This document shows positions 45,844-64,000 of a stretch of DNA of 64,000 nucleotides, in pieces (the stretch's first letter is position 1; each line of letters starts with the position of its first letter). The notes below the pieces were generated by a model, which worked only from the letters and a program-made list of their open reading frames with translations, was not told the origin of the DNA and made no database searches. Position numbers and translations under genes: made by a program. The stretch comes from an uncultured cyanobacterium (lineage in GTDB: Bacteria; Cyanobacteriota; Cyanobacteriia; CAKZMO01), in assembly GCA_963719515.1 (NCBI GenBank), contig CAVRCJ010000011.1:384001-448000 (forward strand), written 5' to 3'.

Positions 45844-47364
45844 TTATTCCGCAGATTCACTGCCATCTTCAAGCGCTTCAGAAGATAGCGGCGATTCGAA
45901 TCCCCGATCGATGTCTTCGTACAGCGCGCGCTCCCCTGGCTCCTCCAAGGGCATCGCCTCCTGAGCGCTGTAGGAAGGCTCCGCCCGCCTCACCTGGACA
46001 TGATGGAGCCTGGGACCATCCATAGAGATCACCGTCATCTCCCAAGGCCCGGTCTGCAGGACTTCTCCCAGCGTCGGAATCTTCTGTAGATGGTGGATCA
46101 AAAACCCGCCCAGCGTCTGGTAGTCGTCGGCGGTAGGGAGCCCCATGTCTAACAGCTCGTTGAGTTCCTCTAGGTCAAGCTGGGCCTGAACCAGATAGGT
46201 TTGGTCCCCCAACAGCCTCACCGGAGAGTCTTCTTCTCCCTCTAGCTCGATATCACCACCGATGATCTCAGCGGTCAAATCCTGAATCGTGATTAGACCG
46301 GCGGTGCCGCCGAACTCATCCACCACCATTACCATCGGCTGCCCCGATCGCTGTATCAGCTGCAGCAGCTCGTGCAGCGGCATCGATTCTGGAACGAAGC
46401 GAGCCGGTTTAATCCAAGCGCCGATGCGGCTGTCAAAGGCGAGGTCATTTTGCACCAAAGGCTGGGCCAGATCCTTGAAGTGAAGAATGCCGCTAATGTC
46501 GTCGAGGGATTCCCCCGTAATTGGGTAGCGAGAGTAGCCGCTGGTGCTTACCTCGTTGAGCACCAGGTTGAGATCAGCGTCTGCTGGAAGGGCGACAATG
46601 CTCGTGCGGGGAACCATAACCTCGCCTACGGTCACATCTCCGAACTCAATAGCGTTGCTCAGCAGCTCCCGCTCATCGGCCTCAAGGCCGGTGGACTCCG
46701 TGGACGTGCTGATGATAATCTGCAGCTCCTCAGGGGTAAGGCGGCTCGACAGGCTCTCAAGCTGATAGGGGACGCCCAGCAGCCGCAGCAGGAAGCGGGT
46801 GGACTGATTGAGCACCCAGATAAACGGGTTAAAGCAGCGGGCGATCGCCATGCTGGGCGGGGCCAGGATGCGGGCCAGCCGCTCGGCATCGATTAGGGCG
46901 ACAGACTTGGGGCAAAGCTCTCCCAAAACAATCTGCAGGTAGGCCACCACGATAAACGCAGCAGGAATGCTGACGGTATGGGCAATCGGCCCCGCCATTT
47001 GAGGGAAGAACCGCTGAAGAATGCCGCTGATGGGACCGGCCAGGGTATTTTCGCTGATCCAGCCGAGAGCCAAGCTAGAGAGCGTAATACCCAATTGGGT
47101 CGTCGAGAGCAGCCGCTCGATGCTGCGCTGCAGCACCTGCACCATCTTCGCCTGGGCATCCCCGGAGGAGGCGAGCTGACTGATGCGCGATCGCCTCACC
47201 GAGACAATCGAGAACTCTGCTGTGACAAAGAACGCATTGATCGCAATCAGCACCGCGATCGCGAGTAGCCTAAAGGCAGTATCCGACAGAGACAGGGGCG
47301 GCAAGGGCGCACCGTTGGTCACTAGTAGGCTAACCTCTAGCAGCCCTGAACCTGAACGCAGCAT
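45844..47364 (-). CDS. Hemolysin/CNNM family protein (DUF21-CBS-CorC); true start probably slightly downstream
   Basis: NAFFVTAEFSIVSVR, GELCPKS, SGYSRYP and VVDEFGGTAG motifs. Confidence 0.92.
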   Translation of the reverse strand: MLRSGSGLLEVSLLVTNGAPLPPLSLSDTAFRLLAIAVLIAINAFFVTAEFSIVSVRRSRISQLASSGDAQAKMVQVLQRSIERLLSTTQLGITLSSLALGWISENTLAGPISGILQRFFPQMAGPIAHTVSIPAAFIVVAYLQIVLGELCPKSVALIDAERLARILAPPSMAIARCFNPFIWVLNQSTRFLLRLLGVPYQLESLSSRLTPEELQIIISTSTESTGLEADERELLSNAIEFGDVTVGEVMVPRTSIVALPADADLNLVLNEVSTSGYSRYPITGESLDDISGILHFKDLAQPLVQNDLAFDSRIGAWIKPARFVPESMPLHELLQLIQRSGQPMVMVVDEFGGTAGLITIQDLTAEIIGGDIELEGEEDSPVRLLGDQTYLVQAQLDLEELNELLDMGLPTADDYQTLGGFLIHHLQKIPTLGEVLQTGPWEMTVISMDGPRLHHVQVRRAEPSYSAQEAMPLEEPGERALYEDIDRGFESPLSSEALEDGSESAE

Positions 47365-55961: not shown

Positions 55962-56032
55962 GGAGCAAATCGTATGACTACACTTAGCATTAGAGCGATG
56001 CACTGTGGCTCTAGTCTTCCCCTCAAAGGCAG

Positions 56033-56441
56033 GCTTGATACCACTGGCGAATTTTATGTCTTGTTGCATCTCGGCTATTTCCTGCTCCGAAGAAGGCCCC
56101 CTTTTCTGGTATGCCCGAAGGGCTTTAAGCCTCCAATTGAGAGGACTTCAGAGAAGTCAGAACTCCTTGAAGTCAATAGCGACAAATAGTATGGCCACTC
56201 GGGTTCCCCCAGAATTGATACCGCTGGCGAATTTTATGTCTTGTTACATCTCGGCTATTTCCTGCCCCGGAGAAGCCCCCTAAATCCCCCAATTCTGGGG
56301 GACTTCAGAGAAGTCAGAACTCCTCAAAGTCAATAGCGGTCAATGGTATAGACGCTGCTTGGGTTCCCCCAGGATTGGGGGCGGAGGGGGCCTCCAGAGC
56401 GTGCAACTCAATTACAAAATATTTCGCCAGCGGTATCAAGC
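56033..56441. mobile_element. MITE-like element with terminal inverted repeats and a duplicated ~180-bp left part
   Basis: GCTTGATACCACTGGCGAA (56033-56051) and TTGATACCGCTGGCGAA (56215-56231) are inverted relative to TTCGCCAGCGGTATCAAGC (56423-56441). Internal CCCCCAATTCTGGGGG-type palindromes. Confidence 0.7.
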
Positions 56442-56590
56442 TTGGCGACAGGGCGCACAGAGAGTTAACCCTTTGGGCCTCGTGCTCGTGCCGTACCAAG
56501 GGCTCAGGCGATCGCCTGCTAGGACTGCGACAAAGACAGCGATCGCCAGTAATCTCATCAGGACAGTGGCGATCGCTGCTTGGATGGCGC

Positions 56591-56869
56591 TTACTGCAGG
56601 CCGCGCAGGCGCATCAGGTAGGCCAAGACCTGCCCTTCTCGGCGGCTGAGCCGCACACCGTCGGGGCCGATGGGCACGGGGCCGGTCCACAGGCTTTGCT
56701 CTACGAGGTAGCGGTTAATGTGCATCAGGTGAATGGTTTCCCGGATGCCTTCTGGGGTGCCAATGAGGATGTGACGCACCACTTCGCCGTCGGGCTGATG
56801 CGGGGGATCGCTCAGGCGAAGCTGTGCCGCCTCAGGGCTGAGGGGCTGCTCGGGGATTAGAAATGTCAT
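56591..56869 (-). CDS. Small hypothetical protein (RHILIG.PEG...TIH.MH family)
   Basis: ATG with an AGAAAGGAA RBS; 92 aa; preceded by a sigma70-like promoter and a structured leader. Confidence 0.75.
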   Translation of the reverse strand: MTFLIPEQPLSPEAAQLRLSDPPHQPDGEVVRHILIGTPEGIRETIHLMHINRYLVEQSLWTGPVPIGPDGVRLSRREGQVLAYLMRLRGLQ

Positions 56870-57090
56870 GGGTTGGGTTCCTTTCTGGTGTAGATGGGTA
56901 GGAAACCCAAGTTTGGCCACCCCTCACAAGGTTGAACCAGTTCGGAGTGGCCGTGGGAAAATAACCACAGCTTTCGAACAGGTCTGCTCTGTTTCGGAGG
57001 TCAGGCGGCGGCTGTCAATGCCACTGGCAGTCGCTGCCGTTATGACCAAAGCTTGGGAGTCGAACTGCGGGATGCAGCTCTCAAGACGAA

Positions 57091-57119
57091 ATTCTAGGGC
57101 ATTTGGGGATGGGTGGCAA
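57091..57119 (-). promoter_or_regulatory. Sigma70-like promoter for the 56591-56869 gene
   Basis: Minus strand TTGCCA-N17-TAGAAT. Confidence 0.6.
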
Positions 57120-57202
57120 GAGCCAGTGCTGCGATCGCAAAGGCTCAATCGCCCCAGCGGCTAAAATAGACCCAACCCGTCTCAAGCGATCGCCGTGACG
57201 CC

Positions 57203-57865
57203 ATGATCATTTCTACCCAGGTCAGCGAGCTAGAGCTAGACACCACTAGCGGGCAGCTCACCCAAACCGTCACCCTTGCGGGCATTAGCTGGCCGACCTA
57301 CCAGGCTATGCTCACCGACATGGGAGAGCACCGCGCTACCCGCATCGCCTACAACCAGGGAACGCTGACCCTCAAAATGCCATCCAAGCTCCATGAGATT
57401 ATCAATCGCCTGCTGGCGCGCATTGTTAAAACCTTGACTGAGGAGCTGGGCTTAGAGGTGGTGGATGTGGGGTCTATGACGCTGGAGCGCGAAGATTTGC
57501 GCAAAGGTGCGGAGCCCGACACTGGGTTCTATATCCAAAATGCGTCTCAGTTGGACGGGCTCGACCCGCAGATCCCGGCGGGGCTGCCACCGGATCTGGT
57601 GATTGAGGTGGATATTACGAGCCCGTCTACTCAGCGCATGGCGATTTATGAGGCGTTGGGGGTGCCGGAGGTTTGGCGCTACACCAAGCGGCAAGGGCTG
57701 GTGTTCTATCGGCTGGATGGCAATGCGTACGTGGAGGCTGAGGTAAGCGTGGCGTTTGGGCAGGTTTCTTCGGTGCAGCTGAATGCGTTCTTGGCGGCGC
57801 GGCAGCACAAAGGGGAGAATCAGGTGATTCGTGCGGTGCGCGATTGGGTTCGCGGGTTGGAGTAG
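57203..57865 (+). CDS. Uma2 family (PD-(D/E)XK) endonuclease
   Basis: ISW..Y, HE, EPD..FY, PDLVIEVDITS and IY..LGVPEVW motifs. Confidence 0.93.
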   Translation: MIISTQVSELELDTTSGQLTQTVTLAGISWPTYQAMLTDMGEHRATRIAYNQGTLTLKMPSKLHEIINRLLARIVKTLTEELGLEVVDVGSMTLEREDLRKGAEPDTGFYIQNASQLDGLDPQIPAGLPPDLVIEVDITSPSTQRMAIYEALGVPEVWRYTKRQGLVFYRLDGNAYVEAEVSVAFGQVSSVQLNAFLAARQHKGENQVIRAVRDWVRGLE

Positions 57866-57980
57866 GCGGCGTCTTGTCTTTTGAGATTTGGGATTTGGGC
57901 GATCGCTGCTGCTGTAGATGATGGGTATCATCTGAGAATAGCGGCCAGGTTGAAGCAGCTTTATTAAGAGAGGATGACTT

Positions 57981-58244
57981 ATGACTCAAGTGACTATCGA
58001 GCTGCCAGACCAGGTGGCGAGAGACTTAGAAGCTTATCTCCAGGCTAATTCGCAGGAGAGCTTGGCTGAGCTAATCCATGAGGTTCTGCAGGTTAAGCTA
58101 CCGTCTACTCTGCCCTCTAAGGCGATGCAGGGAAACGATTCTTCCTTGGTTGATTTCTTCCGTAACTCTCCGCTCCAAGCTGTGGCTGGGGAGATTGACC
58201 TGAACCGCGATGATCGCGCTGCTGACGAACGTATTACTCTATGA
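57981..58244 (+). CDS. Putative antitoxin (VapB-like)
   Basis: Small RHH-like ORF ending SLVDFFRNSPL...IDL.RD; ATGA overlap with the PIN toxin. Confidence 0.8.
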   Translation: MTQVTIELPDQVARDLEAYLQANSQESLAELIHEVLQVKLPSTLPSKAMQGNDSSLVDFFRNSPLQAVAGEIDLNRDDRAADERITL

Positions 58245-58663
58245 GGTATTTGCTCGATACCTGTATCATTTCGGAGCTTGTTGCAAAGCAGCCTAACCCC
58301 AAAGTCTTGAGCTGGGTTACAGACCAGCCTGACGAGAACTTGTACTTATCTGTCATTACGATTGGAGAGATTAAGAAGGGAGTTTGCAAGCTGCCAGATT
58401 CTAAACGTAAATCCGCGCTGTCTGCTTGGCTAAGGCAAGACCTCCTAGTTCGCTTTGCAGGCAGAGTTCAAGCCGTCGATATTGAAACTATGCTGTATTG
58501 GGGAGAGCTGCTAGGCCGTTTAGAGACCCAGGGTAGAGCACTGCCGCTTTTAGATTCTTTGATCGCGGCGATCGCGCTTCGAGGTTCTTTTCAGCTTGTA
58601 ACACGTAATGAGAAGGACTTTGATAGAATAGGTGTCTCTATAGTGAATCCATTTGTAGGGTAG
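58241..58663 (+). CDS. vapC: PIN-domain toxin VapC
   Basis: YLLDTCIISE, ITIGEI, D.LIAAIA and LVTRNEKDF...NPF motifs. Confidence 0.93.
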   Translation: MRYLLDTCIISELVAKQPNPKVLSWVTDQPDENLYLSVITIGEIKKGVCKLPDSKRKSALSAWLRQDLLVRFAGRVQAVDIETMLYWGELLGRLETQGRALPLLDSLIAAIALRGSFQLVTRNEKDFDRIGVSIVNPFVG

Positions 58664-58940
58664 TGGTGAGACTCCTGTAGCACTTGTAAGCGATCGCTCA
58701 CACCTGTCAGTAAGCTCAAGACAAAGCATCTCAAAATGAGCCTACCTTGCCTCATAGGCTACTGGAGTAAATTCGGACTATTTTTCTTAACTGTCACACG
58801 GCTGAAATACTGATTCTGTCGTGGAACTGATGAGACTGACCTATAGGTAGGCAATTGAACTCTAGTCACTGTTTAATCGACATTTTGGTAAGTATCTCAG
58901 TTATAGAGTGGTTGTAGCTCTGGGGCAATTACTCTGAGTG

Positions 58941-59027
58941 ATTTAACGATCCCAATCAGCGGCAGCAGGCAACCTCGAACTCCACTGATGTTAAGTTCGA
59001 CCGTCCGCTGCATTGGGGTTGTTATGC
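58941..59027 (-). mobile_element. Integron attC recombination site 1
   Basis: Minus strand: R'' GCATAAC-AACCCCAATG(C)AGCGG(A)CGG...CCGCTGATTGGGATC-GTTAAAT R'; imperfect palindrome with two unpaired bases in the R''-proximal arm. Confidence 0.88.
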
Positions 59028-59238
59028 CGCAATGTTGAAGATAAATAAAAGAATAGCGTAACCTGTTGCATAATTAGTAAGTATGTACTAAAGTACGATT
59101 TATACACTCTGTGCAGTGTTTCAGAGGTGCAGCAGATAAACCTAAGAACTTTCCCAACAGAGTCAATCTTTCCTGATCTTTAAGGACATCGAGAGAAGAT
59201 CTAAGTGATTATATTTCAGATCACTTAGGTATTTTCCC

Positions 59239-59706
59239 ATGCCGCATGACTTTAGAGAGTTTCCCAATCCCCTACGTAATCACTTGAGGGAGCTATTTGA
59301 AACCATGAGCCAACTACAAGAAGAAATTGAAAATCTCAGTGATCGTCTTTCCGATTCAAGGCAAGCCTTTAAACAGAGTATTGAGGATTTCTTTCAACAA
59401 CCAAACCAGAACCCATTCCCTACGGAAGGAACTATTGACTCTGATGTCGAGCAATACACGAGGCTCGTGTCTTATTGTCTAGAGGCAGGGGATACAGAAA
59501 TTTTGGATAGATGGGGAATTCAAAACATCCTTACCAATCCGACCATTCTAGCCTCTAGTAACTACGAGTTATATTACTTAGCTTTCAATAATGCACGAGA
59601 AACATCTAAAACGCCTCTAGAAGAAGAATGCTGGATTAAAGTAATTGAGATGTTTCAAATCTTGCAAAATCCAGGAGGTACACTTATCACTGTAGGAAAC
59701 AGGTGA
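59239..59706 (+). CDS. Cassette-borne divergent phycobiliprotein-like (globin-fold) protein
   Basis: DVEQYTRLVSYCLEAGDTEILDRWGI resembles the phycobiliprotein D..YY.R.V.YCL.AG.T..LDEW/YGI segment. Confidence 0.6.
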   Translation: MPHDFREFPNPLRNHLRELFETMSQLQEEIENLSDRLSDSRQAFKQSIEDFFQQPNQNPFPTEGTIDSDVEQYTRLVSYCLEAGDTEILDRWGIQNILTNPTILASSNYELYYLAFNNARETSKTPLEEECWIKVIEMFQILQNPGGTLITVGNR

Positions 59707-59730
59707 AAGAGGATTAGCACTTTTAAGAGA

Positions 59731-60297
59731 TTATTTATCCTGAGAGCGCCGTGCAGCTTGCTGGGCACGAGCTGCACTAAGGTATTGGCTACTGAGCTGC
59801 TTCGCATTTCTTCGCATTTCTTCGCCTCTACTAACGTCTATGATTTGCTCTAAGAGGCTTTTTATCTCTCTAATAGCTTCCACAGATAGTTCATGAGTTG
59901 CACTTAAATCATCAACATTTTCCCTTAAGGAATAAAGCTCACTATTCTCGGGAAGTGTTGATGCCAAAACTTTCAAACGCTCAAGAGCTTCACTTTTCTT
60001 GGTTTGAAACGAGGAATTTTGTCTCTTTATTTCATATATTTTATCTTTAATATCATCAGCAACCTGCTTAAGTCGATTTCGCTTAGCTTCGACTTCTGAT
60101 TCAAACTTCTTAATTCTGGCAAAGTCTTGAACTCTTTTTCTAAAGCCCTGTATGGCATTCCATATTTGATTACGAGCTAGAAGGCACCCAAATATAACAA
60201 TAACTGCAATTAACGCAGGGAGCTTACTGAGATCCGAAAAATCACCTTTCAAGATATCTTGAACTAAGTCAAAAATTTTCTCAAATATTCAATCCAT
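59731..60297 (-). CDS. Cassette-borne membrane-anchored coiled-coil protein; ATG at 60297 is followed by an in-frame TGA at codon 3 (alternative TTG start at 60252)
   Basis: One TM helix then a long heptad-rich region; ATG GAT TGA ATA TTT is in frame with the 173-aa ORF. Confidence 0.65.
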
Positions 60298-60558
60298 TAG
60301 AAACTCGCTCTTCTAAGGTAGTTGCACAAGCCGAATTATAGTATGCGCTTTATAGATAGCGCGACTTTAGGGATCGTGAGCTATTAGCAGTAGAACATTG
60401 AATTAAGGCAAAAGCCAGCTTAAGCATATTTCAGATTTGAGGGATTTTATACCATTATCCCAAAAATTAAGTAATTCTCAAGAATACTTAAACATGCATA
60501 GTTCAACAGCTTAAAAATTTGCTACAAGGGCTACTGTGTCCCAACCAAAAATTCAGCA

Positions 60559-60646
60559 GCATAACGTTCCGATTGAGCGGCATCAGGTCTGCTGTAACAT
60601 TAGACAAAAAGGTTCCCGGCTGTCCGCTCCAATCGGATTGTTAGAC
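60559..60646 (-). mobile_element. Integron attC recombination site 2
   Basis: Minus strand: R'' GTCTAAC-AATCCGATTG(G)AGCGG(A)CAG...TGCCGCTCAATCGGAAC-GTTATGC R'. Confidence 0.9.
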
Positions 60647-60911
60647 ATCGAGATATTAACTGAATGTAGAACACACATCTATGGCTTTCTTCTAAAAAAC
60701 CAGTTTAGAAAGGCAATAATAGCGACCGCTATCATGGTTATTATTTGAAAAGGATTGAATATCTTAGTTATGCTTTGCATCGTACTCGTTTTAGTTAACT
60801 AGATAGGTTATTTTAGAAACGGTTTTGAATCAGTGTCTTTTGAATCTGGGGAAGATAAATACAAAGCCTTAAAACATCGGTTTTACTAGACTTTCAACAT
60901 TCAGGCGTCCC

Positions 60912-61385
60912 TCAGCGATCTCGGAAACGCTGTAAAGTCATTTGCAGGCTTTTATAGATATTTTTCCAGTCTTGAGCCAGAAAATCTTCTAATCCCTGTA
61001 GGTCCATTTTCTTGAACGTCAACTCACCTCGACTATTCTGAGTCACGCGAAAATTCGCGTTGTACAATCTCAGCATCTCCTCGGGTTGCATTGTTTCTAC
61101 TTTCTTTTCGTAGTTCGAGTACAGAAAAGTTGCGGATAATCCCCCTACTGCGGCAGCTCCTGCCCACCCAATAGGACCAAGGGCAGCTACACCAAAAGCT
61201 CCAAAAACCGCAACCTTTTCCGCAATTTTTTCCCTAGATATTCTCAAAAGTCGGTAATAGATCTTCACAGCATACGAGTACACCTCACCTTTGACTATGA
61301 TTTCATCCCCAACCGCAAAAGAATCGATCCTTGCCAGAACGTCTGTCCAGTCATCATGAGACTGAACGATAGCCACTTTACCCAT
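60912..61385 (-). CDS. Cassette-borne hypothetical protein with a glycine-zipper-like hydrophobic segment
   Basis: GAGG RBS; GAFGVAALGPIGWAGAAAVGG; single gene of the first cassette, in cassette orientation. Confidence 0.75.
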   Translation of the reverse strand: MGKVAIVQSHDDWTDVLARIDSFAVGDEIIVKGEVYSYAVKIYYRLLRISREKIAEKVAVFGAFGVAALGPIGWAGAAAVGGLSATFLYSNYEKKVETMQPEEMLRLYNANFRVTQNSRGELTFKKMDLQGLEDFLAQDWKNIYKSLQMTLQRFRDR

Positions 61386-61461
61386 ACAACCTCATTAACT
61401 CTCTCAATACAAAACACAAGATAAAAAAACTTACTTGCTATTCTAGCCTGGGACTAAAACT

Positions 61462-61480
61462 GTCTAACTATATATTCAAC
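61462..61480 (-). mobile_element. attI-like primary recombination site
   Basis: Minus strand GTTGAAT-ATATA-GTTAGAC: degenerate L box, 5-bp spacer and R box complementary to R'' of attC2; no attC hairpin upstream of it. Confidence 0.65.
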
Positions 61481-61688
61481 GTCAGATCTGCTCGATAACA
61501 CCCCATTCCCCGGATCTTATCAGGCAGATCTGACGGATAACACCCTATTTCTCAGGCTTATCTACCACATCTGACGTCTAACTCCAGAAATCCGGGGTGT
61601 TATCTGTCACTTTTGCTTGATGATCCTAGCCTCTGGAATATTATTTGTCACTTCTGACGGATAACAACACACATAGCCGTGTTATCCG
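61475..61688. repeat. Array of 24-bp palindromic repeats with 17-18 bp spacers
   Basis: Units at 61475, 61517, 61558, 61600, 61641 and a partial at 61682; idealised consensus TTATCCGTCAGATCTGACGGATAA. Confidence 0.85.
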
Positions 61689-61894
61689 GCGATCGCCATG
61701 TGCCATTGACCATGAAAAGCAGTGCAGCGTCGCTGCCGGGCGCAGCAGCTAATCAGGCTACACAGCAAAGTTTAAGATATCCTGACGAAATCTCTCCTCG
61801 CCGACAAGTCCATTCGTTTGCTACGCCGCTTTCCCAGAACTGTAAATCGCAAGCACCCAAGTACTTCATACCGCTATACCGCGATCGCCCCATG

Positions 61895-62095
61895 CACTTA
61901 AGCAAAACCAACAAACGCTTACTGAGATCAAGCAAACGCTTAAGCAAAACCGACTAACCACAAAGCGAAACCTCAAAACACTTAAGCCGTAAGCCATATC
62001 GCTTATTGAGCTATAAGCAACGCTTAAGCGTTTCTCGCTAACGTATAAACGTTGGTCGATAACGCTCAAGCAAAACCAACAAACGCTTATTGGTT
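61895..62095. repeat. Degenerate 21-bp-period tandem repeat (~10 units)
   Basis: CTTAAGC/CTTA core recurs at 61897, 61918, 61939, 61981, 62002, 62023, 62065 and 62086. Confidence 0.8.
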
Positions 62096-62268
62096 ACCCC
62101 AAACCGAGCCCACGCCAAAGGCTCAACCCCACTCGATACAATGGCAGCACAACAGCCCAGACTCAGCGCAGCCTAGATACGCCTCAGCGATCGCCCCCCA
62201 TAGCTGACAAACATGGGGTGCATATGCACCGGCTACAGCGTGAGAATGCTGGTGTTGGATTTCCCCAT

Positions 62269-62376
62269 CTAGGCAAAGGCGATCGCTTTCGATCGTCCGT
62301 GAGCTGTATCGACGCTGTCCCCTTGTAGGCTGCGGCGAAGCGGTACAGGTGTTCCCTGATCAAACAAGATTTTCAT
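62269..62376 (-). pseudogene. 3'-truncated PIN-like toxin (DUF5615 type)
   Basis: MKILFDQGTPVPLRRSL...VDTA then an early stop; TAATG-coupled to the upstream DUF433 remnant. Confidence 0.7.
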
Positions 62377-62501
62377 TAACCTGCTATGCGCTCTAACCTA
62401 GTGAGTTCATAGTCTAGAAGGGACTCCACCTGACTACGTGCTACTCCTGGAAACCAGTCCAAAAATTGATCGATGGAAGCGCTATCTTTAAGATTTTCAA
62501 G
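62376..62501 (-). pseudogene. 5'-truncated DUF433 antitoxin
   Basis: LENLKDSASIDQFLDWFPGVARSQVESLLDYE, the C-terminal half only. Confidence 0.72.
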
Positions 62502-62640
62502 TTATCTTCGCGATGTCGGGTCAGCAGCAGCAGGCAGAGCAGATTGGCCGCCAGCGCCAACAACGCCCATAAGCTCTGCGGTGGGAGCTGCCCCGGTCAT
62601 AAATTGATAGATAGCCCGAGCGAAGACGGCGATCGCTGCT
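62502..62640 (-). pseudogene. Internal fragment of a cation diffusion facilitator (CzcD-like) gene
   Basis: AIAVFARAIYQFMTGAAPTAELMGVVG / frameshift / ALAANLLCLLLLTRHREDN. Confidence 0.6.
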
Positions 62641-62731
62641 GGCACCGCCGCGAGCCGCAATTTGCCACGTTCAAAGCCCTACTTGCCCCAAATGGTCTAC
62701 GCTTAGAGCATATTTTTTTAGAGCCGACTAA

Positions 62732-63547
62732 ATGCGTGTTGAAGCCTGCTGCCAAGCCCTGTTGGAAAACCTGCTGCCCGATCTTGACCCCGATCGCCAG
62801 GGACTCTGCGTGGATGTAGGGGTTGGCACCTTTGCCTTTTACTGCGAGCTGTTTGCCCGGCTGGGGTTCGCCACCGTAGCCGTAGAGCCTTCTCCCACCG
62901 ATAAGCTGCGGGCGCTCTGCCAGCAGTACTCCATCCAGCTCATTGAGCAGTGCCTGTCAGACCAAGTGGGGACCCAAACCCTATACATGGGACAGTTTGC
63001 CAACTTAGCCAACAGCAATTTTAGCTCGCTGGCCGCCGACTGGTTTGGCGCGTCAAGCTCGACTCGCTCAGTGCCAACCCTAGATTTAGCGACCTTACTC
63101 CGCCAGGTCACCGCCCCCTACATCACCGCCTTTAAGCTCGATATTGAAGGGTGGGAGCCGGTTGTAATCCAGCAGTTTGTCGAATTACCCAGCAAGCAAC
63201 TGCCCCAAGTTGTGATGTTCGAGTACGGCGGTGGCGGCAGTCGTGCCCAGGGGTCAAAAGGCTGGTCGCCCAACTTTTTTCAGGGCACGATGACTTGTCT
63301 CGAAGTTTTGCAGCAGCAGGGATACGCCTTTAGCGTTATGGTCGACTATGCCTCTGGTACCCAGGCTAAGGTGTTTGATCTGCAATCTCTAGATTTGGCT
63401 CACGAGTCGCCCTTTTGTGCCAACGGCGTCTACGGCAACATTCTTTGCTTTCACCAACAGCGCTTTTCCACCGAGAGAATACAGCGCATCTGCGCCCCCT
63501 ATCGCGGTGGTTTGGCCAACTGGCTGGTGAGCACCTTCGTCTCCTAA
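62732..63547 (+). CDS. FkbM family methyltransferase
   Basis: VDVGVG, VAVEPSP and FKLDIEGWE..V motifs. Confidence 0.88.
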   Translation: MRVEACCQALLENLLPDLDPDRQGLCVDVGVGTFAFYCELFARLGFATVAVEPSPTDKLRALCQQYSIQLIEQCLSDQVGTQTLYMGQFANLANSNFSSLAADWFGASSSTRSVPTLDLATLLRQVTAPYITAFKLDIEGWEPVVIQQFVELPSKQLPQVVMFEYGGGGSRAQGSKGWSPNFFQGTMTCLEVLQQQGYAFSVMVDYASGTQAKVFDLQSLDLAHESPFCANGVYGNILCFHQQRFSTERIQRICAPYRGGLANWLVSTFVS

Positions 63548-63748
63548 GCCTGAGTTGAAAGAGGCGGTGCGATCGCAGCCAATATCCGCCATTCTGACGG
63601 TGATGACGAGGCTGCACCTCCTGACTGAGCCAAGTAGTCTACCCATAAAGCACGCATCTACGGGCAAAGTCCAAGCCCCACAGTCTTTAGCGGTTTTGTC
63701 AGGCCGCTTTACGGTTAGACACACCATCACCAGCAGAGCGTTCAGGGT

Positions 63749-64000
63749 ATGTCACTTAAAAGGTCTATTGCCACTGTATCTTGCCTCGGGGTGCTATCCT
63801 GCACTCCTGCTCAAAGGCAAGATTCTGAGCCGCCGACGGCAATATTCCAGGCCTTCAACCAGCCCTATAGCGACATCAGTACCTTTGTCTGCGCGCTGGC
63901 CGACCAGGGCTACTCCCACCTGCAGATTTCCCCCGCGCAGCAGTCAAACCCGGGAGGCGAGTGGTGGAAGCGCTATCAGCCCGTCGACCTAAGCGTCATT
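63749..64000 (+). CDS. Alpha-amylase (GH13), N-terminal part, possible lipoprotein (runs off the window)
   Basis: Manual translation: MSLKRSIATVSCLGVLSC...AIFQAFN...LADQGYSHLQISPAQ...WWKRYQPVD. Confidence 0.82.
   Translation, partial: MSLKRSIATVSCLGVLSCTPAQRQDSEPPTAIFQAFNQPYSDISTFVCALADQGYSHLQISPAQQSNPGGEWWKRYQPVDLSVI

Follow-up and report, generated by a model that had tools for sequence, protein, structure and literature searches.

An integrase-less integron cassette array of a cyanobacterium retains an extended attI site composed of phased core-like boxes

We have analysed a window of 64,000 nucleotides (GenBank assembly GCA_963719515.1, contig CAVRCJ010000011.1, positions 384,001 to 448,000) from an uncultured cyanobacterium, in which the stretch 58941-61480 is a real integron cassette array, with an attI site, two true cassettes and two attC sites arranged in the standard geometry on the minus strand. 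This attI is a true one, stretching to about 61690; the earlier note on this DNA, which was made from its letters without database searches, had recognized only the 7-bp core and overlooked the boxes, phased at 41 bp, which form most of the site. Comparison with homologous loci supports the view that the locus would be an integron which lost its integrase gene (intI), namely a clustered set of attC sites without an integrase (CALIN) that retained its attI, and as best explanation overall we consider it very probable that a relic chromosomal integron of a cyanobacterium rich in the octamer HIP1 has been found. It should be emphasized that as a cassette array the element is ordinary, CALINs and decayed integrons being already well known. 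The architecture of its attI is common in related genomes and a description in print is apparently lacking: no published account of a periodic cyanobacterial attI was found in a search made mostly without subscription papers, the original attI studies among them, and without supplements.

On the minus strand the order is core GTTAGAC (61468-61462), cassette A, attC2, cassette B and attC1 (Table 1), as the earlier note had laid it out, and the core complementarity described there is exact in both cassettes: GTTAGAC complements the R'' of cassette A (GTCTAAC, 60646-60640), and GTTATGC (60565-60559) the R'' of cassette B (GCATAAC, 59027-59021). The attC sites were evaluated with a covariance model (CM) of 21 aligned attC sites from other records, collected by a window-free hidden Markov model (HMM) that was seeded from the other attC sites of this genome; the window's own sites were kept out in order to avoid circularity. 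This check, of a kind proposed together with the original claim, gave exactly two matches over the 64 kb, one scoring 68.4 bits (E 1e-14) and the other 52.4 bits (E 1e-10), both on the bottom strand, so that no further attC is seen downstream of attC1 within the window, and 12 matches over 158 kb, the additional 10 being elsewhere in this genome. A first heuristic attC scan had been noisy, and the HMM and the CM were used instead. Both sites have the R'' and R' cores, the paired L arms and the extrahelical bottom-strand bases of gene-cassette attC sites, and folding of the bottom strands gave -15.9 kcal/mol (z -3.1), which 3 of 200 shuffles equalled, and -19.4 kcal/mol (z -4.5), which none of 200 did. 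Two unpaired bases had been described in the R''-proximal arm of each site; attC2 has them as two single bulges of its minimum-energy fold (T 60623, C 60629), whereas the fold of attC1 has one and the second is seen only in the CM alignment. The two sites lie on the same strand, 1.6 kb apart (limit 4 kb), with no intI nearby, and the array was rightly called a CALIN. The segment 58728-58939 was considered as a third cassette and rejected, as it matches G001:C482 at 80% in an attC-free context.

The array is AT-richer than its surroundings, as had been observed, with a GC content of 39.5% versus 56.6% in the window, a value equally low in only 12 of 10,462 overlapping 2,540-bp windows of the genome (5.28 Mb, 21 contigs, 1.47 HIP1 octamers per kb, a density that points to a cyanobacterium, as do named neighbours). 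The lack of HIP1 in the array is likewise true (0 versus 3.7 expected, Poisson P = 0.024) and, taken alone, it is poor evidence: 282 of the 10,462 windows are also without HIP1.

The proposed IntI-mediated insertion is supported by the mobility of cassette B as a unit with G|TT ends, beside the CM matches and the attI homology described below. In Alkalinema sp. CACIAM 70d cassette B is present at 88% over 1,571 bp, and one end of the match coincides exactly with the G|TT core, the other with R''; the attC is decayed at the latter end, the cassette stands first behind a different periodic attI, and that locus is without intI. A metagenome copy (L090) has both ends and an intact attC, and its two genes are separated by an insert of about 3.2 kb (L090:1537-4763), which holds open reading frames (ORFs) of 131 and 785 amino acids (aa). 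In contigs from four of seven listed public runs, one follows cassette B to 58944 and then runs into another cassette, two stop at 60565, and several attI-like ones part at 61463-61466 with differing downstream sequences; metagenome contigs part from the window at all three crossovers, with different neighbours. Contigs from RNA runs cover attI and part of cassette B and none covers cassette A; they may be DNA and are no proof of expression.

The identity of the attI was established by its copies. For the 246 bp upstream of the first core this genome holds four close copies (73-83%) and a fifth, eroded one, and the six paralogous platforms are 54-89% identical pairwise. Homology among the copies stops at G|TT, the bases 3' of the G deriving from cassette A; the L box, the 5-bp spacer, the crossover and, in homologues, a divergent intI are all found. 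The first cassettes of the sister platforms chain alike, exactly in C1a, C1b and C18a and with 6 of 7 in C14. The first cassette of C1b (G000:C1:277443-277582) is about 140 bp long and appears to be gene-less.

It had been stated that no integrase lies in the window, and neither TIGR02249 nor tblastn gave an intI match near the locus. In the whole assembly, which is 100% complete though split into 21 contigs, TIGR02249 had a single 38-residue match and nothing over the cut-off, while a tblastn search that used 12 full-length IntI proteins of relatives recovered only N-terminal remnants, pointing away from four attI copies (C18:29125, C1:256178, C1:277824 and C18:21966), one of them joined to the C-terminal 19 residues. 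Hence the genome search suggested by the earlier note found no intact intI with the IntI-specific insertion beside any attI, and remnants beside the sister platforms only. Of its two alternatives, service by an integrase in trans finds no support in this assembly, although service by an incoming mobile IntI is possible, while the loss of intI is backed by the remnants and by homologous attI sites standing beside intact intI in G083, G107 and G385. The window copy and C14 are both without any trace of IntI and have in common a 42-bp segment beyond the array.

The window attI was matched in 49 of 401 genomes, its own included. At 29 homologous loci in other genomes intI was intact in 3, broken in 3, a remnant in 6, absent in 15 (as judged within 1.6-1.7 kb of sequence), and 2 were too short. 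For comparison, a TIGR02249 match at E <= 1e-100 was obtained in 85 of 301 genomes of the class, and none of four same-genus genomes has one over the cut-off. Since these states of intI form a graded decay series, its loss is the best reading of the locus. Three points speak against the explanation as a relic integron. No IntI similarity remains at the window copy, and for this reason the loss is deduced from paralogues; none of the relatives' contigs spans both flanks of the island (same-genus genomes have the flanking DNA as far as about 56030 and again from 63677), so that neither an empty orthologous site nor one with intI was seen; finally, cassette A was not seen whole elsewhere, a 155-bp piece in public-run contigs being all that was recovered.

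According to another explanation the locus is a maintained stand-alone capture platform, whose intI-less attI would be kept by selection and loaded by a passing plasmid-borne or otherwise mobile IntI. In this attI subclass loci without intI are in fact commoner than those in any other state (15 of 27 assessable), the six paralogues persist side by side in a single genome and differ in their first cassettes, the last 26 bp of the window site before G|TT are near-identical to sites beside intact intI, the Alkalinema platform is likewise intI-less, and a 58-kb cyanobacterial plasmid, Kovacikia pB, carries a complete integron with five attC sites (NZ_CP083584.1:24024-32986), which shows that IntI can be plasmid-borne. 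However, the attI of this plasmid is of another sequence type and gave no match with the window-type profile, and the occurrence of intact, frameshifted, internally deleted and absent intI fits drift. Furthermore, the crossover G of C14 has become A, C18b has eroded to about 58%, a nonsense codon interrupts gene 1 of cassette B, and the loci were chosen by their likeness to the window attI, so their conservation is partly ascertainment. We regard such maintenance as improbable. Among the cargo of the Kovacikia plasmid integron are an AAA ATPase and a methyltransferase acting on cytosine.

Insertion of cassettes at a secondary (attG-type) chromosomal site, which would mean that no integron ever existed here, is a route proposed for small CALINs and for single attC sites lacking an integrase (SALINs) in the part of bioRxiv 2022.09.11.507474 considered, and this genome does have two single attC sites that are not accompanied by a full attI (C4:91761, C13:43863). 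At this locus the 230 bp that precede the first crossover share 73-83% identity with regions abutting intI or its remnants; the first cassette is not joined to ordinary chromosomal DNA, and the attI homology already refutes the route here, which we hold to be very improbable. Clean intI loss is favoured over it because many intI-less arrays in these genomes, as a profile of this attI reveals, still start at a true attI (no intI trace in 15 of 27 assessable). That the attC sites are chance palindromes or host repeats (REP-like, terminators) beside an AT-rich insertion is hardly conceivable and counts as already refuted, for although the island is a mosaic of multi-copy elements, the CM E-values, the two exact 7-bp core chains and the exact ends of the mobile cassette B contradict it. 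An Rfam scan of 56000-64000 gave one chance match and nothing relevant.

The extended attI, which fills the stretch from the presumed start of the former intI to the crossover, consists of five forward boxes, starting at 61665, 61624 (degenerate), 61582, 61541 and 61499, and five inverted boxes, ending at 61681, 61640 (degenerate), 61599, 61557 and 61516, followed by the L box and G|TT; the right half of the last palindrome is the attI L box itself. We collected the upstream regions of 78 full-length or near-full-length intI loci (60 from the top TIGR02249 matches, 17 from another set and one plasmid), of which two with less than 250 bp were dropped. The best self-repeat lag was 39-43 bp in 61 of the remaining 76, and 58 exceeded all 50 mononucleotide shuffles, while 68 downstream controls were flat. 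A box matrix, seeded on the half-sites of the window and iterated on the intI loci, found 5.0 sites per 340 bp versus 0.21 in the controls, with spacings of 40-41 bp (forward-forward), 24-25 bp (forward-inverted) and 15-17 bp (inverted-forward). The crossover could be anchored automatically in 32 of the 76, in some of them wrongly within the array; it is in the L box that the last palindrome ends. On a class 1 integron (NC_023326.1) the same matrix ranked the direct repeat DR1 first, with 8.6 bits at 32 bp before the crossover, where the last forward box of the window stands at 31 bp. In this genome 7 of 11 exact matches to the 11-bp half-site fall in attI arrays; a strict regular expression for the full palindrome unit had no genome match, the pattern being too strict.

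In the attI1 of class 1 integrons DR1 and DR2 are accessory IntI1 sites (PMC3146285, PMC8946536), which favour attI1 x attC reactions (PMC8946536), DR1 being labelled strong and DR2 weak (bioRxiv 2022.02.06.479319), as far as the parts of these sources considered here go. The comparisons above suggest that the ten phased boxes are probably also accessory IntI-binding sites, an expanded version of DR1/DR2. Several findings count against this assignment: 15 of the 76 loci are without the 39-43 bp period; the matrix drifted to a commoner variant, and three inverted window boxes score below zero; at 27 curated loci the box 39-44 bp upstream resembles its own L arm (8.9 of 14) only slightly better than that of other loci (8.0; off phase 5.6); on the class 1 integron the second match of the matrix (7.0 bits) lies downstream inside a cassette, above DR2, which is third (5.1); and the locus counts overstate independence because the intI loci are kin.

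Alternatively, the array might serve a host protein or an intI regulator, as an operator or an architectural site, and not IntI. Head-to-tail palindromes are typical of the operators of dimeric regulators, and the array occupies the entire intI leader. Most environmental attI sites are, in the portion of PMC3146285 consulted, without accessory repeats, which would also fit an operator. On the other hand, the last palindrome shares its right half with the L box, the boxes begin with a GTTA-type core and are similar to DR1 both in their sequence and in where they lie, and the half-site matches concentrate in attI arrays, unlike the spread of a global regulon. As an account of the boxes, and of the boxes only, a non-IntI operator is possible and rather unlikely.

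It is known that IntI recombines the bottom strand of attC with double-stranded attI and that the junction is resolved by replication (PMC8946536, in part). From established integron biology, a cognate IntI would formerly have been encoded divergently from about 61700; circular cassette B would have been inserted first and cassette A next, at G|TT, by recombination of the attC bottom strand with attI, which would leave each leading core complementary to its own R''. Deletion of intI afterwards would have frozen the array until an IntI comes from outside. The upstream inverted pairs have spacers of 15-16 bp versus 5 bp in the simple site, about one extra helical turn, which might allow IntI to load along one face of the DNA over about 210 bp without cutting there. 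Loaded boxes would concentrate IntI at the crossover in the manner of an enhancer; they would probably cover the intI promoter and could perhaps act as intI operator. A bolder idea, namely that a phased IntI-loading scaffold replaces DR1/DR2 in cyanobacteria and recruits foreign integrase, so that genomes keep several headless capture platforms which load cassettes each time a mobile IntI comes by, is doubtful for the time being; if it were true, many cyanobacterial CALINs and single attC sites would be attI-bearing platforms invisible to current software.

Compared with known systems, the locus resembles the CALINs described in 2016 (PMC4889954, in the sections considered) in having two attC sites, no intI nearby and a small array, and intI loss is among the four origins named there; it differs in that the attI is kept and identifiable and the sister platforms display steps of intI decay. 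In that study attI was searchable for classes 1-3 only, intI pseudogenes stood near 15 of 279 CALINs, most thus being without one, and the origin of CALINs was an open question. The pseudo-integrons of Nemergut et al. 2008 (PMC2426708, in part) share the frequent intI decay and the several copies per genome, whereas here intI is wholly gone at this copy, and no functional integrase accompanies the six platforms of the genome. With class 1 attI1 the window site has the L box, the 5-bp spacer, G|TT and the DR1-like forward box in common; attI1 has two direct boxes 19 bp apart, in contrast to the window site, where about ten boxes, some forward and some inverted, recur every 41-42 bp along about 210 bp, and of the two-direct-repeat arrangement itself only the DR1-like position is shared. 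The Cyanobacteria-specific attC model of Ghaly et al. 2021 (PMC8352920) makes cyanobacterial attC sites a recognised group, and the text of it that we examined holds no account of cyanobacterial attI. The architecture of the extended attI recurs in most of the full-length intI loci sampled from this class, and it lends itself to a deletion series on the function of accessory IntI sites.

Table 1. Coordinates of the array, its extended attI and its genes in the window
Feature	Position	Strand	Description
attI simple site	61462..61480	-	L box GTTGAAT (61480-61474), 5-bp spacer, crossover G(61468)|TT
Extended attI array	61481..61690	-	Ten core-like boxes, palindromes, 41-42 bp period; putative accessory IntI-binding sites
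Cassette A	60565..61467	-	903 bp; leading core complements own R''; attC2 matched by CM
Cassette A ORF	60912..61385	-	157 aa, near-orphan, Gly/Ala-rich hydrophobic segment
attC2	60559..60646	-	88 bp; recombinogenic bottom strand is the + strand
Cassette B	58947..60564	-	1,618 bp; two convergent genes; mobile unit, whole in other organisms
Cassette B gene 1	59731..60297	-	188-codon frame; N-terminal hydrophobic helix and coiled coil; TGA at 60291-60289
Cassette B gene 2	59239..59706	+	155 aa; partial phycobiliprotein-like domain, PF00502 over residues 41-97
attC1	58941..59027	-	87 bp; crossover G(58947)|TT
Presumed former intI place	61689..62092	+	HIP1 at 61689; 185 bp without detectable IntI similarity; HIP1 at 61881; then repeat tract

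The two convergent genes ascribed to cassette B are present as frames, but the minus-strand gene 1 has TGA at codon 3 in the window copy, where all five other homologues found are 188 aa long; a 173-aa product starting at TTG 60252 is possible. Gene 2 also matches phycoerythrin alpha chains (E 2e-4). Neither a whole globin-like domain nor the chromophore Cys of a full phycobiliprotein was found in it, and it is unlikely to carry bilin at the usual place, because the position of the chromophore Cys aligns to an Ile66 invariant in 7 of 7 sequences; its AlphaFold model (pLDDT 54) is too poor for a judgement of the fold. For the cassette A protein no close homologue and three distant ones (34-42%) were found, and no Pfam, PADLOC or NCBIfam match; the best atlas score, 0.80, is a lead only, and matches to PDC-M09A in two relatives are weak and confined to the hydrophobic segment. 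A promoter scan gave 7 sites versus 7.9 expected, and no cassette promoter (Pc) can be assigned because promoter-like sites are no more frequent than expected.

Around the former place of intI, HIP1-mediated deletion was considered, junctions lying at or near HIP1 in C1a (G000:C1:256160-256320) and at the array edge of the window (61689); it is not established because HIP1 occurs so frequently in this genome. The repeat tract beyond 61881 recurs in G001:C344, where it lies upstream of the attI array; its HIP1-flanked degenerate repeats (61890-62092), with 42/84/126-bp spacing, are shared by four same-genus genomes and in one instance stand a short way upstream of an attI array. At L090:5600-5640 a cassette is preceded only by a bare sequence like the simple site, directly after HIP1, which is too common for a conclusion. 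Miniature intI genes, in which about residues 1-45 are joined to the C-terminal 20-40 with differing joints, were seen at G000:C18:28935-29125 and G002:C72:760-1007. PF00589 had one, unrelated, match (G000:C10:431388-431609), unusually few tyrosine recombinases for a 5.3-Mb genome, and the first-look filter may miss some. The single attC sites without full attI (G000:C4:91761-91846 and G000:C13:43863-43949) are strong, with 77 and 50 bits; the former follows 1.5 kb of AT-rich DNA, and C13 has a partial piece of an attI array at 46959-47046.

The left edge of the island (56000-57100) is a multi-copy element with a small unannotated gene (ORF 56591-56920, minus strand), the protein of which has about 50 matching genomic places, some of them within 1-2 kb of sister attI platforms (C1:256917, C1:278658, C18:21072, C18:28332); a similar-looking ORF was noticed by eye beside the Alkalinema platform and was not recovered by search. 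Just past attC1, outside the cassettes (57203-58663), there are a Uma2-family gene, a small antitoxin-like gene and a PIN-domain gene, and the latter two are likely a toxin-antitoxin pair.

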